Positions 3,991-28,477 of a stretch of DNA of 35,896 nucleotides are shown here, one piece after another. Each line of letters begins with the position of its first letter. Position 1 is the first letter of the stretch. Origin of the DNA: Chiloscyllium plagiosum (Eukaryota); contig NC_057757.1 in the NCBI RefSeq assembly GCF_004010195.1, positions 6,237,914 to 6,273,809 of the forward strand, given 5' to 3'. Both the position numbers and the translations under genes were made by a program. Below the pieces are notes generated by a model. The model saw only the letters and a list, made by a program, of their open reading frames with translations, ran no database searches and was not told the origin of the DNA.

Positions 3991-4769
3991 TAGCTCAGCA
4001 GTATGTCCCTTGATCTCACTGGAGTGACTGGATGTAAATTTGACTTGTTTGGTTTAAATAAAAAGGTTGTCGTCACCTGGAACAAAATTGCAAATGCAAC
4101 CTGTTTGTCGGAAAACTGTGTTCCAGATCCTGGAGCTCTGAGGTGCCAGTTCGCTGCTGCCTCTCTATCGATACGAAGGGTTCAGAGCAGAGTTGTGTAA
4201 AGTTGCGTGTCAGATTGACCTGCTCCTGAGTCCTGAGTATGTAACTCAGGCCGACGCTCCCGCTGGCGTTGCTGATTGCACTGTCACTGACACAATAAGC
4301 CAGGATGTTGCCTGTCCCACTGGGAGGATGTAAGCAAGCCCACAGTCACTATTTTGAAGCAGGGCAGCTTATGGAGGAAAGCAGACTGGTCGTTAGCATG
4401 TTGCCCTTCGTGGGAGCTTGTGTGCAATTCCTGCATCACGTCGGAAGCCACACACCAAAATGTAGTGAGTTGATTGACATTGGGACACCTGTGGTTGAGA
4501 TAAGTGCTAGGAAAATGAAGATTGTATCGTCTGTTGGTCTCATTCTCTCTGTCTTCCTGTTTCCCCTTTTTCCCCATTCTTCTTTATTTCTTCACCTTTA
4601 CTTGTCTGTTCTCCTTACACCCCAACTTGTTTAGAATGCGGAATGTCTGCCAGCAGTCTCCATGTGAGGGTTTAGCTTGCGAAACCCTAAGTGGTTTATA
4701 GGGAGCAGCAGCTAACATTTTCTTACTGGAAATATCACTTCTTTGTCTGTCTATGGGTTGTAGGTGTTG

Positions 4770-10184: not shown

Positions 10185-10534
10185 TTAAAAAACATTAATT
10201 CACGGGACATGAACATCACTGCTGGGTCAGATTTTGTTGCCCACCCCTAATTGCCCAGAGGGCACTTAAGAGTCAACTACAGTGCTGTGGGTTTGGAGTC
10301 ACATGTAGACTCAGACCAGGTAAGGCAGGCAGTTTCCTTCCCTTAAGGACATTAGTGAACCAGATGGGTCTTTCCAACAATCGACTTTAGTGAGTCAGAT
10401 GGGTTTTTCTGACAATTGACATCATTAAATTCTTAGTTCCAGATTTTTATTTGATTTGTGTGCCACCATTTGCCATGGCAGGATTTGAACCTGGGTCACT
10501 GGATTAACAGTCCAGCGATAATACCACTAGGCCA
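10185..10534 (-). mobile_element. tRNA-derived SINE (second family)
   Basis: Reverse complement of 19226-19551; head tggcctagtggtattatcgctggactgttaatcc. Confidence 0.85.
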
Positions 10535-11869: not shown

Positions 11870-12020
11870 GGATATCCCAAGGCTGTAAGAGATTTTTAAT
11901 CAGTAAGGAATTGTGAGTAAAAGGCAGGAAGGTTGAGTTGAAGATTACCAAATCAGCCATGATCTGGTTGAGAGGCAGAGCAAACCCTGTGGGCTGAATG
12001 GCCTGCTTCCGCACTTGCGG
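11870..12020 (+). mobile_element. CR1 3' tail fragment
   Basis: gatttttaatcagtaaggaat...aaggcaggaag...atcagccatgatct...gggctgaatggcct is a CR1-type tail. Confidence 0.6.
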
Positions 12021-12344
12021 TCTTTGTCCTGGGTGAGGATGGGGCAAAGTTGGCAGCACTGGTCTGTGGACCAGGCAGAGCAGTTGGTAGGTTGCAGTGA
12101 AGGGTCGAGAAGTTGCTGAGGTGAGAGAATGAGGCTGCAGTGGATGGGTAGGGTGTGTGGGCTTGGAGTTGGGTGGGCGATCAATCCCAGATCTCACTTG
12201 GAGAGATTGAGAGAGAATTGGGGGTTGGGGGAATCCGTGAGGTTGGGCCAGAAGCGATTCAAAAAGAAGAGGATGGGAGGAGGTTGGGCAGGTGTTGATG
12301 GGAGGGCGTAGTGAAGGTTTGGGGTGTAAGGAGAGGAGTAATGG

Positions 12345-12638
12345 TGAAGACAGGCTCAACCGTTACCACTGGTATGTCACGGCGCCAGCGATCCAGGTTC
12401 GAGTCCACCCCTCGTGTGATTGTCTGCATGGAGTTTGTACACTCTCCCTGTGTCTGCGTGGGTTTCTGCCTGGTACTCTGGTTTCCTCCCACAATCCAAA
12501 AATGTGCTGGTTAGGTGGGTTAGCTGTGGGAAATGCAGGGTTACAGGGATGGGGTGGGTCTGGCTGGGGTGCGCTTCGGAGGGTCAGTGTGGTCACGATA
12601 AGCTGAATGACCTGGTTCCTCACCGTAGAGATTCTGTG
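12345..12638 (+). mobile_element. HE1-type V-SINE (diverged)
   Basis: V-domain tgtctgcatggagtttgtacactctccctgtgtctgcgtgggtttc...ggtttcctcccacaatccaaa and tail gattctgtga. Confidence 0.85.
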
Positions 12639-13135
12639 AGGGAATGGTTGTGGAAACTGCAGTTTTGTGGGAGGGTGGGTGTGCATGCGTACTTGAGATA
12701 ATTAGTGGAGAGCTGGGCTGAGCTGGGTTGCATGGGGTGATTGTTGGAGGAGGGGTCATCAGGATCACGTAGGGGAGGGCTGGGCTCACAGGGATTGGAA
12801 AGGAGTGTGGCTTGCAAAGGTTGGTGGTTGGGATCAGGGTCGTGTAAGGTTGGGTGTGAGTTGCGGAGTGTCAGATTGTGGGGTCTGGTTGGAATCACAT
12901 CAGGCGTTGGGAAAGGAGGGCGTGTTGGAGAAGGTTGAGGAGGATCAGGTTTCGGATGGGAGTGAAGAGTTGGAGCAGCGTGAGAGATTGGGAATGGTAG
13001 GTGTAAGGATGCAGAGGTTCCGTTTGGGAGGATTAGGGTTGCGTGAGGGATTGGGGAGGGTCAGTGCGCAGTATTGAGCTGAGTCTGCGTTCGGCCAGAC
13101 TAGATTCTGCTGACTCTGTTCTCCTGTTGCCACAG

Positions 13136-14864: not shown

Positions 14865-15150
14865 CAAGACACCTCACGGCAGCACCAACAAAATATGACG
14901 CTGAGTCCTTTCAGGCAACGTCAGGGCACATGTACCAATGTTTGGTCAGAGAGGTAGGTCTTGAGTGCCACCTTAAGGCAGGCAGGAGAAGTTTAGATTG
15001 AGGCTTCCAGAACTGAGGAGCTTCGCACCAAAGGCACTGGCACTGTGGGTGAGTGATGGAGGTTGGGAATGTCTTTGAGAGGCCAGACAACTGAAATCTC
15101 AGAGTTCTAAAGCTGGATGTGATTTCAGAGGTGAGGGAGGGAGGGCGTGT
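14865..15150 (-). mobile_element. Probable ancient L2-type LINE 3' fragment
   Basis: ttggtcagagaggtaggtcttgagtgccaccttaagg...ttccagaactgagg pattern; a similar remnant lies at ~35340-35450. Confidence 0.35.
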
Positions 15151-15469
15151 CCATTTCGGTGTTGCTTAACAGGCAGCTGGCATAGGTCATTCAGCTGAGT
15201 AGGGGAGACCCTTGGGATTGAGGATGGCTTACTCCTCCGAGGGCGCACCCAATGGCAGATGATGGAATGGTTTTGAACTGAAGGCCACGTAGGCTGAAGT
15301 GTTTCCCATCTTTCAGGTGGGCCTTATCTCCATGTCTGTGGATAATTGCAGAAGGTGAGGTGCACGAGAGAATGGCTGGTATTGTGACACCTAACGTTTT
15401 GACCCTGTCGTCATTGAGCCGGGTGTTGGTGGTGCTTCTGTTGGGGCAGGTCGTGGTTTTGTCTTGTGG

Positions 15470-16070
15470 AAGTGGTGGTAAGGGTTTGGCGATGGAGGAC
15501 GCCCAGGATCTGCATATCCTTAGTGGAGTGGGTGTTAGCGTTGGGCCACAAGGCAGTAGTGTTGCTTGGTATGTGTATCCCGGAGATGTTCTCTGAAGCA
15601 TTCCGCAAGTAGGCGCCTTGTCTCCCTAAAGTAGAGGAGACCTCATTGGCAGCAATGGATACAATAAATGATATGTGTGGAAGAGCAGGTAAATCTCTGA
15701 CAGATGTGGAAAGCTCTTTTGAGAATTTGAATGATGGTGAGAGGAGAGGTGTGCGTGCAGATTTTGCAGTGTTTGCGGTGGCAGGGGAGGGTAGGTTGGT
15801 GGGGGAGGCATGGACCTGACAAGAGACTCACTTGGGAGAACGGTCTTTTCGGAATGCAGATAGGGGTGGGGAGGGAAATATATCCCTGGTGGTGGAGGTC
15901 TGTTTGTAGGAGGTGGATATGGCGGAGGATGATGCGATGTATCCAGATGGGGTGGAAGGTGAAGACTGAGGGGTTCTGTCCTTGTTGCGGTTGGAGGGGT
16001 GGGGTTCGAGGGCGGAGATGCATATGACAGCACATTCAAGGACTTTGGATTGGAAAAGGAGATGGAGATG
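15470..16070 (-). mobile_element. Penelope-like element, GIY-YIG endonuclease region (decayed)
   Basis: Minus strand reads PCHRKHCKIC...FTCSSTHIIYCIHCCQ*GLLYFRETRRLLAECFREH...KDMQILGVLH: PLE Zn-knuckle plus GIY-YIG motifs, with a stop and frameshifts. Confidence 0.85.
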
Positions 16071-17174: not shown

Positions 17175-17545
17175 GAGATTTACAGTGTGTGTGCCCCTGT
17201 GCTGTCCCTGTCTTACCAGTGTTTGATGGGGACAAGAGTAGCAAGAGCTTTCCTCTGTATCTAACCCCGTGCTGTCCCTGTCCTGGGAGTGTTTGATGGG
17301 GGAATAGTGTAGAGGGAGCTTTCCTCTGTATCTAACCCCATGCTGTCCCTGTCCTGGGAGTTTTTGATGGGGGCAGGGTAGAGGATGCTTTACTCTGTAT
17401 CTAACCCCGTGCTGTCCCTGTCCCGGGAGTGTTTGACGGGGGGGTGGGGAAAGAACAGTGTAGAGGGAACTTTATTCTGTATCTAACTCCGTACTGCCCC
17501 TACCTGGGGAATGTTTGTTGGGGGACTGTGTTGAGAAAGCTTTAC
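17175..17545. repeat. ~70-bp minisatellite, about 5 copies
   Basis: Unit ctttcctctgtatctaaccccgtgctgtccctgtcctgggagtgtttgatgggg...gtagagggag repeated with variation. Confidence 0.9.
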
Positions 17546-17616
17546 TTTCAATTTAGAAGGGTAGAGGGAACTGACACTGACTGTAACCCATCTTGTACTT
17601 CTCTCATTTTCTGTAG

Positions 17617-17751
17617 GTGTTGAACCCATTCTACATTTTCCAAGTCTTCAGTGTGATTCTCTGGACTATTGATGATTATTACCTGTACGCGTCTGCCATT
17701 GTCTTCATGTCTGTTGTCTCCATCTGTACCTCCCTATACACTGTGAGAAAG
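17617..17751 (+). CDS. ATP13A3: ATP13A3-like coding exon 6 ([16 protein letters not shown]...SLYTVRK; TM1-TM2)
   Basis: ctgtag acceptor and gtaaag donor; 135 nt. Carries the P5 signature NPFYIFQ. Confidence 0.96.
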
Positions 17752-17840
17752 GTAAAGAGCTCCCTGTGAATAGCTGAGAAAACCAGCTCAGGCACCGTGA
17801 GAAACCTTCTGAACAGTCTCCTTTGTTTCATTCCCCCCAG

Positions 17841-17913
17841 CAATACGTCCTCCTCCACGACATGGTGGCTGCCCACAACGTGGTCCGAGTGAGGGTTTAC
17901 CGCAGCAACAACA
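17841..17913 (+). CDS. ATP13A3: ATP13A3-like coding exon 7 (QYVLLHDMVAAHNVVRVRVYRSNN)
   Basis: ccccag acceptor and gtgagt donor; 73 nt, phase 0-1. Resembles ATP13A3 QYVMLHDMVATH. Confidence 0.95.
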
Positions 17914-17935
17914 GTGAGTCGCCTCTTCTACAAAA

Positions 17936-18027
17936 CGGATATGGGTGGGTTTCGCTTCGACGGGTCGGTGTGGACTTGTTGGGCCGAAGGGCCTGTTTTT
18001 ACACTGTAATGTAATCTAAAAAAAAAA
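17936..18027 (+). mobile_element. 5'-truncated HE1/HER1 tail with A-run
   Basis: gggtcggtgtggacttgttgggccgaagggcctgtttttacactgtaatgtaatctaaaaaaaaaa; CpGs are intact, suggesting a young copy. Confidence 0.8.
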
Positions 18028-18170
18028 CGGTTTCGCGTCACGTTGCCTCGTGTCCGCTCTTGCTGTCTAATTCCTGCTCTTGGAAGGACCGGCAGCAGGT
18101 GAAGCGTTCGTGATTTCTTCCCCCTCTGTTCTTGGTTGTTTATTTCCTCTTTGTGTTTTCATGTTCACAG

Positions 18171-18302
18171 CAACGGAGGAAATCTTCTCCACCGACCTAG
18201 TACCCGGAGATGTCATCCTCATCCCAATCAATGGCATGATAATGCCGTGTGACGCCGTACTGATCAGCGGAACATGTGTGGTCAACGAGAGCTTGTTAAC
18301 GG
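18171..18302 (+). CDS. ATP13A3: ATP13A3-like coding exon 8 ([13 protein letters not shown]...VNESLLTG; A domain)
   Basis: tcacag acceptor and G|gtgagg donor at 18303; 132 nt, phase 1-1. Carries the LVPGD, PCDAVL and NES.LTG motifs. Confidence 0.96.
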
Positions 18303-18935
18303 GTGAGGGGTGATCCGTGTGGGTGCACTGGGCTGAGGGAGCTTGTTAACGGGTGAGGGGTGATCCGTGCGGGTGCACTGGGCTGAGGAAGCTTGTTAAC
18401 GGGTGAGGAGTGATCCGTGCGGGTGCACTGGGCTGAGGGAGGTTGTTAACGGGTGAGGAGTGATCCGTGCGGGTGCACTGGGCTGAGGAAGCTTGTTAAC
18501 GGGTGAGGGGTGATCCGTGCGGGTGCACTGGGCTGAGGGAGGTTGTGAACGGGTGAGGAGTGATCCGTGCGGGTGCACTGGGCTGAGGGAGCTTGTTAAC
18601 GGGTGAGGAGTGAACCATGTGGGTGCACTGGGCTGAGGGAGGTTGTTAATGGGTGAGGAGTGAACCATGTGGGTGCACTGGGCTGAGGGAGGTTGTTAAC
18701 GGATGAGGAGTGAACCATGTGGGTGCACTGGGCTGAGGGAGCTTGTTAACGGGTGAGGGGTGAACCGTGCGGGTGCACTGGGCTGAGGGAGCTTGTTAAT
18801 GGGTGAGGAGTGAACCATGTGGGTGCACTGGGCTGAGGGAGCTTGTGAACGGGTGAGGAGTGATCCGTGCGGGTGCACTGGGCTGAGGGAGGTTGTTAAC
18901 GGGTGAGGGGTAAACCGTGCGGGTGCACTGGGCTG
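18289..18935. repeat. 50-bp minisatellite, ~13 copies, starting inside coding exon 8
   Basis: Unit gagcttgttaacgggtgagg(g/a)gtga(t/a)cc(g/a)tg(c/t)gggtgcactgggctgagg with an exact 50-nt period (18291, 18341 ... 18891). Confidence 0.97.
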
Positions 18936-21557: not shown

Positions 21558-21749
21558 GGGAAAGTGTGCCCATCCTGAAAACCAACCTCCCGGTCCCTTC
21601 CCAGTGCAATGGGACAGCGCAGGAAGAAGAGGAGGAAGAGGTGTACAGCCCAGAGAACCACAAGCGCCACACACTCTTCTGCGGCACGGCGGTCATCCAG
21701 ACGCGGTTTTACAGGGGTGAGCCGGTGAAAGCTGTCGTTGTCCGTACAG
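21558..21749 (+). CDS. ATP13A3: ATP13A3-like coding exon 9 ([11 protein letters not shown]...[10 protein letters not shown]...VVRTG)
   Basis: ccacag acceptor and gtacgt donor; 192 nt, phase 1-1. Completes the TGES motif. Confidence 0.96.
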
Positions 21750-26014: not shown

Positions 26015-27030
26015 CATAAAGCACGGAAACAGACCCTTTGGTCCAACCAGTCCATGCCAACAGTAATCCAAACTAAACGACTCCCGCATTCCATGTGCTT
26101 GAACTTATCGGAATGTCTTTTAAACGTTGTAACTATATCTGCATCCACCACTTCTCCTGGGAGTTCATTCCACACGCAAACCACTTTGTTTAAAAACAAC
26201 AAAAAAAAGCTGCCTTCCATGTCTTGTTTAAATCTTTCTCCTCTCGCCTTAAAAATATGCTCCTTTAGTCGTGAAATCCCCTACCCGAGGGAAAAGGCAC
26301 CTTATCTCTACTCATGATTTTATAAACCATCCCATAACCTCCAACACTCCGGCCTATCCAGTCTCTCCTCATAACTCAAATCCTCCATTCCCGGCAGCGT
26401 CCTGGTCAATCTCTTCTGAACCCTCTCCAGTTTGATGATATCCTTCCTACACCAGGGTGAGCAGAACTGGACACAGTTACTCCAGAAGGGGCCTCACCAA
26501 CAACCTGTACAACTTCAACATGACGTCCCAACTCCTGTACTCCAAGGTCTGAGCATTAAAGCGTGCGAAATGCCTTCTTAATCATATATGAGGCAAACTT
26601 CAAAGAATTATGAACCTAAACCCCTAGACCCCTCTGTTCTGCAATATTACCCAAAGGTACTCCAAGGTCTGAGCAATGAAGGCAAGCGTGCAAAATGCCT
26701 TCTTAACCATATATGAGGCAAACTTCAAAGAATTATGAACCTAAACCCCTAGACCCCTCTGTTCTGCAATATTACCCAAAGCCCTACATTTAATTGTATA
26801 AATCTTGCACTTGTTTGTTTTACCAAAATGCAAAACCTGGCATTTATCAAATTAAACTCCATCTGCCACTCCTCAGCCCATTGACCCAATTGATCAAGAT
26901 CTCTTTGTAATCTTAGATACCTTCTACACCGTCCACTATATCACCAGTCTGCAAACGTACTTCCCCCTGCCTCCTGTATTCTCATCCATCTCGTTTATAT
27001 AAATGACAACCAGACATGGACCCAGCACCG
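26015..27030 (-). mobile_element. CR1/HER1-like LINE 3' kilobase with an internal tandem duplication
   Basis: ORF 25942..26220(-) reads VVCVWNELPGEVVDA...FKRH.D. A duplicated block spans 26537-26656 and 26657-26781. Confidence 0.88.
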
Positions 27031-27470: not shown

Positions 27471-28477
27471 GTCACCGCCCTGGGCTGCCTGCTCCCACTC
27501 AAGGTCACTGCGCCGGGCTGCCTGCTCCCACTCAAGGTCACTGCGTCGGGCTGCCTGCTCCCACTCAAGGTCACCGCCCTGGGCTGCCTGCTCCCACTCA
27601 AGGTCACTGCGCCAGGCTGCCTGCTCCCACTCACGGTCACCGCCCTGGGCTGCCTGCTCCCACTCAAGGTCACCGCCCTGGGCTGCCTGCTCCCACTCAA
27701 GGTCACTGCCCTGGGCTGCCTGCTCCCACTTAAGGTCACTGCACTGGGCTGCCTGCTCCTACTCAAGGTCACTGCCCTGGGCTGCCTGCTCCCACTCAAG
27801 GTCACTGCGTCGGGCTGCCTGCTCCCATTCAAGGTCACTGTGTCGGGCTGCCTGCTCCCACTCAAGGTCACTGCACTGGGCTGCCTGCTCCCACTCACGG
27901 TCACCGCCCTGGGCTGCCTGCTCCCATTCAAGGTCACTGTGTTGGGCTGCCTGCTCCCACTCAAGGTCACCGCCCTGGGCTGCCTGCTCCCACTCAAGGT
28001 CACCGCCCTGGGCTGCCTGCTCCCACTCAAGGTCACCGCCCTGGGCTGCCTGCTCCCACTCAAGGTCACCGCCCTGGGCTGCCTGCTCCCACTCAAGGTC
28101 ACCGCCCTGGGCTGCCTGCTCCCACTCAAGGTCACCGCCCTGGGCTGCCTGCTCCCACTCAAGGTCACCGCCCTGGGCTGCCTGCTCCCACTCAAGGTCA
28201 CTGCCCTGGGCTGCCTGCTCCCACTCAAGGTCACTGCGCGGGCTGCCTGCTCCCATTCAAGGTCACTGCGCTGGGCTGCCTGCTCCCACTCAAGGTCACC
28301 GCCCTGGGCTGCCTGCTCCCATTCAAGGTCACTGTGTCGGGCTGCCTGCTCCCATTCAAGGTCACTGCACTGGGCTGCCTGCTCCCACTCAAGGTCACCG
28401 CCCTGGGCTGCCTGCTCCCATTCAAGGTCACTGTGTTGGGCTGCCTGCCCCCACTCAAGGTCACCGCCCTGGGCTGC
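27471..28477. repeat. 33-bp GC-rich minisatellite, ~30.5 copies
   Basis: Unit gtcac(c/t)gccctgggctgcctgctcccactcaag; it accounts for the 11-aa-periodic ORFs on both strands. Confidence 0.98.

Follow-up and report, generated by a model that had tools for sequence, protein, structure and literature searches.

A minisatellite in an ATP13A3-like gene of the shark Chiloscyllium plagiosum carries the last 14 nt of a coding exon, together with the splice donor of that exon, in units of 50 bp repeated about 13 times, and the most upstream of these donors is the main one used, as seen in one assembled contig, which would display the dominant form only, and in the end of a second contig. The array is an ordinary further case of a repeat type known from several human genes. 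It is best explained, with a probability of about 0.8, as a near-neutral intronic minisatellite that was seeded by chance on a splice junction and works like the minisatellite in intron 7 of human F7. The window, that is the whole stretch of DNA analysed, comprises 35,896 nt of Chiloscyllium plagiosum NC_057757.1, forward strand, and all coordinates are positions in it.

Structure of the array

The features on which the argument depends are as follows.

11649 to 35146, + strand: ATP13A3-like (P5B ATPase) gene, placed by tblastn of the stored proteins P0001, P0004, P0121 and P0123 against the window
18171 to 18302, + strand: coding exon 8, 132 nt, whose last base is the first of the Gly codon in TGES (tblastn; the joint 17913-18171 is GT..AG in the contigs of run X15)
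18289 to 18935, + strand: minisatellite, 50 bp x 12.9 (TRF), whose unit 1 straddles the boundary of exon 8 and intron 8
18303 to 18308, + strand: authentic donor (donor 1), GTGAGG preceded by CGG, with 6 of 9 consensus matches; the run X15 contig departs from the genome at 18303
18311 to 18313, + strand: in-frame TGA for any transcript reading past donor 1, in the reading GGT GAG GGG TGA
18336 to 18338, + strand: AGG, 3 nt at the head-to-tail junction, identical at 12 of 12 junctions and missing from the unrepeated flanks
18353 to 18904, + strand: 12 downstream donor copies, 50 nt apart (18353, 18403 and so on to 18903), 11 of which retain GT
18703 to 18704, + strand: dead donor of unit 9, with AT for GT (ggatgagg from 18701)
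21558 to 21749, + strand: coding exon 9 (tblastn); donor 1 is expected to join its acceptor

TRF describes the array at 18289-18935 with a period of 50, 12.9 copies in the assembly, 93% matches, 0% indels and a score of 1063. Counted from 18289, each unit consists of 14 exon-derived nt, the donor GTGAGG and 30 more nt. A 16-nt motif of the unit, allowing up to 3 mismatches, matches the window 15 times, 13 of them inside the array; shuffled sequences give a mean of 0.53 matches, and 0 of 100 shuffles reach 15. Among the splice sites of the gene that were tested (14 donors and 10 acceptors), the donor of exon 8 has 13 near copies in the window and every other site has one. The array is thus a real genomic feature, and the preliminary description, made from the letters alone, was right to report a 50-bp tandem repeat of about 13 copies that holds the exon 8 end and its donor. 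It shows the structural marks of a donor-spanning minisatellite of the F7 IVS7 type: units of 10-100 bp, a first unit that spans the exon-intron boundary, and a repeated donor.

Host gene and exon 8

The interval 11649-35146 opens with the first coding exon and closes with the last one that could be matched, and the gene extends beyond the window. By tblastn, seven coding exons precede the one at 18171-18302. The translation of exon 8 matches solved structures of ATP13A2 as well as shark ATP13A3-like proteins, and the motifs NES(M/L)LTGES and DKTGT, together with homology across the exons, point to a P5B ATPase of the ATP13A3-like kind. Judged from its sequence, the host gene encodes an ATP13A3-like P5B ATPase, a putative polyamine transporter. 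TGES is the actuator-domain motif for dephosphorylation in such pumps. Joining exon 8 to exon 9 yields LLTGESVP, as in related proteins, and NES(M/L)LTGESVP runs across the exon 8/9 junction in 99 of 125 stored proteins; of the others, 20 diverge after LTG, one diverges earlier and five are without the motif.

The closest stored protein, P0123, whose source label is Chiloscyllium plagiosum, carries the donor-1 junction. Six of its 15 tblastn segments show full identity with the window, and most of the non-identical segments extend into introns. P0122 (78 aa, P0001 cluster), considered as a homologue, gave no match to the window and was dropped. Exon 9 also encodes a glutamate run, QEEEEEEVY at 21620-21641, in whose length related sharks differ: it has 6 residues in the window as well as in P0123 and P0001, 7 in P0121 and 5 in P0004 and P0124.

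Donor 1, its downstream copies and the premature stop

Donor 1 matches the donor consensus at 6 of 9 positions. GT is kept in 12 of the 13 units, and the one exception is the unit read as ggatgagg from 18701, with AT at 18703-18704; both points agree with the preliminary description. Compared with donor 1 at positions -3 to +6, nine of the 12 downstream units are identical, two differ at -3 and one has lost the GT; no downstream copy is stronger than donor 1 over these positions.

The stop codon just past the first donor, also noted in the preliminary description, is present at 18311-18313, where the frame reads GGT GAG GGG TGA. All 12 downstream donor positions therefore lie behind a premature stop, in any frame. 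Use of donor 2 would give an exon of 182 nt and use of donor 3 one of 232 nt, with lengths of 332-732 nt from unit 5 onwards. If translation ended at 18311, about a quarter of the pump would be made, and many junctions would follow the stop, so nonsense-mediated decay (NMD) of the message is expected.

Local folding was considered as a cause of the choice of donor 1 and was rejected, the prediction pointing the opposite way: donor 1 has a predicted accessibility of 0.0004, less than the 0.004-0.095 of all 12 copies. Accessibility at the remaining 13 donors of the gene runs from 0.0000 to 0.20, and the measure thus fails to separate used from unused sites. A recursive-splice reading was likewise set aside, as GG, not AG, precedes the GT of each unit.

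RNA and read evidence

Of the 24 runs listed by a search, in which no RNA holder was named, four (X15, X3, X21 and X22) were mapped to 17590-18388, a stretch that takes in exons 6-8 together with units 1-2 and stops short of units 3-13 and of exon 9. Run X15 consists of contigs, of RNA by the guess of the tool, and run X3 of contigs of unrecorded kind. X21 and X22 are raw single-cell RNA reads from one sample.

X15 contains one contig of 4111 nt (depth 10.2) that is spliced from exon 6 to exon 7 to exon 8 at GT..AG joints, matches exon 8 without any other letter and departs from the genome at 18303. Since exon 9 starts with G and the second letter of intron 8 is T, 18303 is the departure point expected for donor 1, and we infer that this contig joins donor 1 to 21558. 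Its length is that expected of a message continuing to about the stop codon, which, for a protein of 1239 aa with the ATG at letter 382, would fall at 4101. In the bin 18292-18318, the X15 depth of 4.53 is what the 4111-nt contig gives by occupying 12 of the 27 positions; the three bins that follow, from 18319 to 18388, have a depth of 0, so that the intronic part of units 1-2 is uncovered among the contigs listed. Contigs lose rare forms, and at an X15 depth of about 10 minor forms from downstream donors, or forms removed by NMD, would escape; a further 23,412 contig pieces and 151 loose ends fall outside the listing.

In X3, a contig of 303 nt stops exactly at 18303, an end that may mark the fork between spliced and unspliced paths at donor 1. 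Two further X3 contigs, 60-61 nt long and at depths of 14.7 and 60.3, differ from the window by 1-2 letters, hold the head-to-tail junction and cross donor 2 unbroken; neither has the 31 letters that the tool requires on both sides, be it of that junction or of donor 2. Contigs this short show the units in X3 without giving their number. Summed X3 depth is far higher on the repeat unit than on its flank. Exon 8 shows no other letter in X3 or X15. The two runs share a synonymous T>C difference from the window at 17715, in exon 6, and thus represent haplotypes other than that of the window, with the array seen in X3 alone.

Some features of X3 lie upstream of the array. Relative to the window, 23 nt are inserted after 18035 in this run and two letters are substituted (18035-18045 and 17715), which is ordinary polymorphism. 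Its intron 6 occurs in spliced form at a depth of 21.7 (exon 6-7 joint, side 28) and in unspliced form at 28.8. The exon 7-8 joint is absent among the X3 contigs listed, and intron 7, which X15 splices normally, is continuous in the contigs with the exons at its two ends; this pattern could stem from retention of intron 7 or from priming at the A-run near 18018-18027.

The single-cell reads fell elsewhere or nowhere. In X21, 1744 of 12,955,460 reads mapped, all on a dispersed repeat in intron 7, with 0 reads on exons; in X22, 0 of 8,328,510 reads mapped. The intron 7 repeat, at 17914-18028, is a piece of a very abundant dispersed element that ends in TAATC units and an A-run, and besides receiving every mapped X21 read it has a very high summed contig depth. 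It resembles the 3' tail of a shark SINE or LINE.

Variation among units and origin of the array

Ten columns of the unit vary, and 33 of 611 letters (5.4%) depart from the consensus. The deviation is 6.0% both in the 14 exon-derived nt and in the intronic part of the units, and three of the variable columns are CpG transitions. All four combinations occur in 10 of 28 pairs of variable columns, seven of which include an exon-derived column, indicating either shuffling among units or recurrent mutation. Neighbouring units did not resemble each other significantly more than distant units did (permutation p of 0.26 and 0.22), and no direction of growth is therefore claimed for the array.

One change was seen in the donor GT and 1.4 were expected at the background of 5.4%; the GT of the units shows no sign of purging or of protection. 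Over the columns -3 to +6, three changes were seen and 6.3 expected, counts that are few and non-independent and hence not readable as selection. Placed at the end of the exon, seven of the 12 downstream units would alter the protein, by replacing Ser with Arg or Thr with Met or by turning a Leu codon into a stop, which argues that the downstream copies are free of coding constraint.

The identical AGG at 12 of 12 junctions points to one founding event followed by amplification. First, about 47 nt spanning the exon 8 donor would have been duplicated locally, with 3 extra nt left at the joint; slippage, unequal exchange or conversion would then have produced about 13 shuffled copies in a G-rich array with decaying CpGs. 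The probability that a 50-nt seed includes a donor by chance is 0.027, rising to 0.10-0.13 for at least one of 4-5 window arrays, and one of the five arrays in the window sits on a donor.

G-quadruplexes have been linked with minisatellite instability. A G4Hunter-style score, in our own implementation, averages 0.87 over the array, and the largest value in 647-nt windows outside it is 0.79; only 11% of the 25-nt windows in the array reach 1.2. The G-richness of the array as a cause of instability is a weak lead.

Elsewhere in the window, a second large minisatellite (27471-28477, 33 bp x 30.5) lies in intron 12 and ends about 300 nt before exon 13, in contact with none of the splice sites tested. 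Smaller tandem repeats, either intronic or lying before the coding start, occur at 17195-17524, 26537-26781 and 10348-10422 (units of 71-82, 125 and 35 bp). Strong G skew marks 12001-13000 (0.48, intron 1) and 15001-16000 (0.39, intron 4), where no tandem period was found.

Comparison with known donor-spanning minisatellites

In F7 intron 7, a 37-bp minisatellite has a first unit that spans the boundary, and splicing takes place solely at the donor lying furthest upstream (Borensztajn et al., 2006, PMC1557585). According to the accessible part of that paper, F7 pseudo-donors are active only when the preceding donors are mutated, they compete only when they match the consensus perfectly, and the splice pattern is unchanged by 1-12 monomers. 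The same portion of the text reports that two extra donors are used in IFI6 and in CBS, and that only the authentic donor is used in LMNB2 and PDGF.

The shark array resembles that of F7 in its boundary-spanning unit, in the repetition of the donor down the intron, in its G-rich unit of similar size and in the moderate strength of its donor; in both, RNA shows the first donor in use. It differs in that its unit has 50 bp with 14 exonic nt, compared with 37 bp and 4 in F7, and in that it comprises about 13 copies, which carry variants, compared with 5-9 in F7. Moreover, every downstream donor of the shark is preceded by a stop, which is not the case for two of the F7 pseudo-sites.

As far as the accessible parts of the sources describe them, the 31-bp VNTR of CBS intron 13 and the arrays of IFI6 (6-16) intron 2, LMNB2 and PDGF also repeat an exon end with its donor, 10-25 times. 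The CBS unit shares with the shark unit a long exonic part, c.1444_1467+7 in the portion of PMC2630376 available. Unlike in CBS and IFI6, no use of extra donors was seen in the shark, in contigs that could miss rare forms. The amphioxus 'mirages' (Adh3 and the globins BflGb6 and BflGb9) are likewise tandem duplications of an exon-intron boundary with cryptic splice signals and turnover among units, for which regular splicing is reported as undisturbed in the accessible text of PMC3087553; that text also describes how they differ, with arrays on the acceptor side too, units of 150-160 bp in the globins, and instability of length. For the array at the ATP13A3-like locus, no description was found among the papers listed in a literature search made mostly without subscription papers.

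Interpretation and alternatives

On the reading proposed here, the spliceosome would define exon 8 as the 132 nt that lie between its acceptor and the first donor met, a step made partly visible by the contigs. The downstream copies would act as silent pseudo-donors and be removed with intron 8, so that splicing yields the usual TGES junction. If donor 2 or 3 were used on rare occasions, the message would contain the TGA at 18311, NMD would clear it, and the effect on the protein level would be small. The array would thus be without a regulatory role of its own.

An unlikely alternative, of the IFI6/CBS type, is that donors 2 and 3 are used at a low constitutive rate, giving an exon 8 longer by 50 or 100 nt that stops at 18311, with the products removed by NMD and the rate nearly independent of copy number. 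IFI6 and CBS do use their two nearest pseudo-donors in the available portion of PMC1557585, donors 2 and 3 of the shark are the same as donor 1 at -3 to +6, and the folding prediction puts more pairing on donor 1 than on its copies. Set against this are the absence of listed X15 contigs from the intronic part of units 1-2, the X3 contigs that cross donor 2 unbroken, and the three genes (F7, LMNB2 and PDGF) in which, in that same portion, only the authentic donor is used.

A wider proposal is improbable: G-rich intron starts in the shark would repeatedly seed donor minisatellites above chance, leakage in proportion to allele length would here set the level of the polyamine transporter through NMD, and the copies would form a reservoir of damaging variants for conversion into the codons before TGES.

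The preliminary description had suggested that competing, near-identical donors could make the balance between productive splicing and NMD depend on copy number, which would turn the array into a heritable tuner of expression in which the share of productive ATP13A3-like mRNA follows the number of units. This idea found no support and is very improbable. It draws on the eleven intact extra donors and the immediate in-frame stop, on a human catalogue of length-linked splicing repeats whose mechanisms, in the accessible part of PMC10078293, are other than repeated donors, and on a CBS VNTR tied to reduced CBS activity by a title in the reference list of PMC2630376. However, F7 minigenes with 1-12 monomers were spliced alike, and distant F7 pseudo-sites were less efficiently used, as far as PMC1557585 was accessible; in the shark, adding units would place donors at growing distances from the acceptor of exon 8, with exons of 332-732 nt once unit 5 is reached; the X15 contig departs at donor 1; and use of downstream donors was not seen in the listed contigs over units 1-2.

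That the array is an artefact of assembly is highly improbable. The best DNA-type runs contain 0.60 of the sampled words, less than the 0.65 that are located outside the array, and this share alone is thus no proof that the array is present. The units, however, vary at 10 columns in shared, recurring patterns without indels, and X3, which stems from a different haplotype, has 60-61-nt contigs that hold the head-to-tail junction and an excess of depth on the unit.

Finally, a 15-nt micro-exon that would add five residues before TGES is hardly credible and was rejected: an AG 15 nt before each downstream GT does bracket 15 nt in phase in units 2-13, and the accessible text of PMC3087553 proposes that mirage units may become exons in amphioxus, but the unit AGs are without a pyrimidine tract (pyrimidine fraction 0.45-0.50 at 12 of 12, compared with 0.64-0.91 at 10 of 10 real acceptors) and the insert would fall within the motif unchanged in 99 of 125 stored proteins.

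The preliminary description had also proposed that unequal exchange could rewrite the coding end of the exon. As a mechanism this is plausible, given the 10 of 28 column pairs with all four combinations and the seven of 12 units that would alter the protein, but no such event was seen, and the residues encoded by unit 1 are those found in related proteins. Rewriting of exon 8 from damaged downstream copies is a possible hazard.

Significance

The preference for the first donor in a cartilaginous fish suggests that the rule described for human F7 holds far from mammals. With its copies placed behind an immediate stop, over half of them coding-damaging, the locus would offer a clean natural test of donor competition and likewise a natural test of gene conversion into the coding end of an exon. 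If several such arrays in one genome were found to be enriched over chance, they would be informative on the birth of minisatellites.
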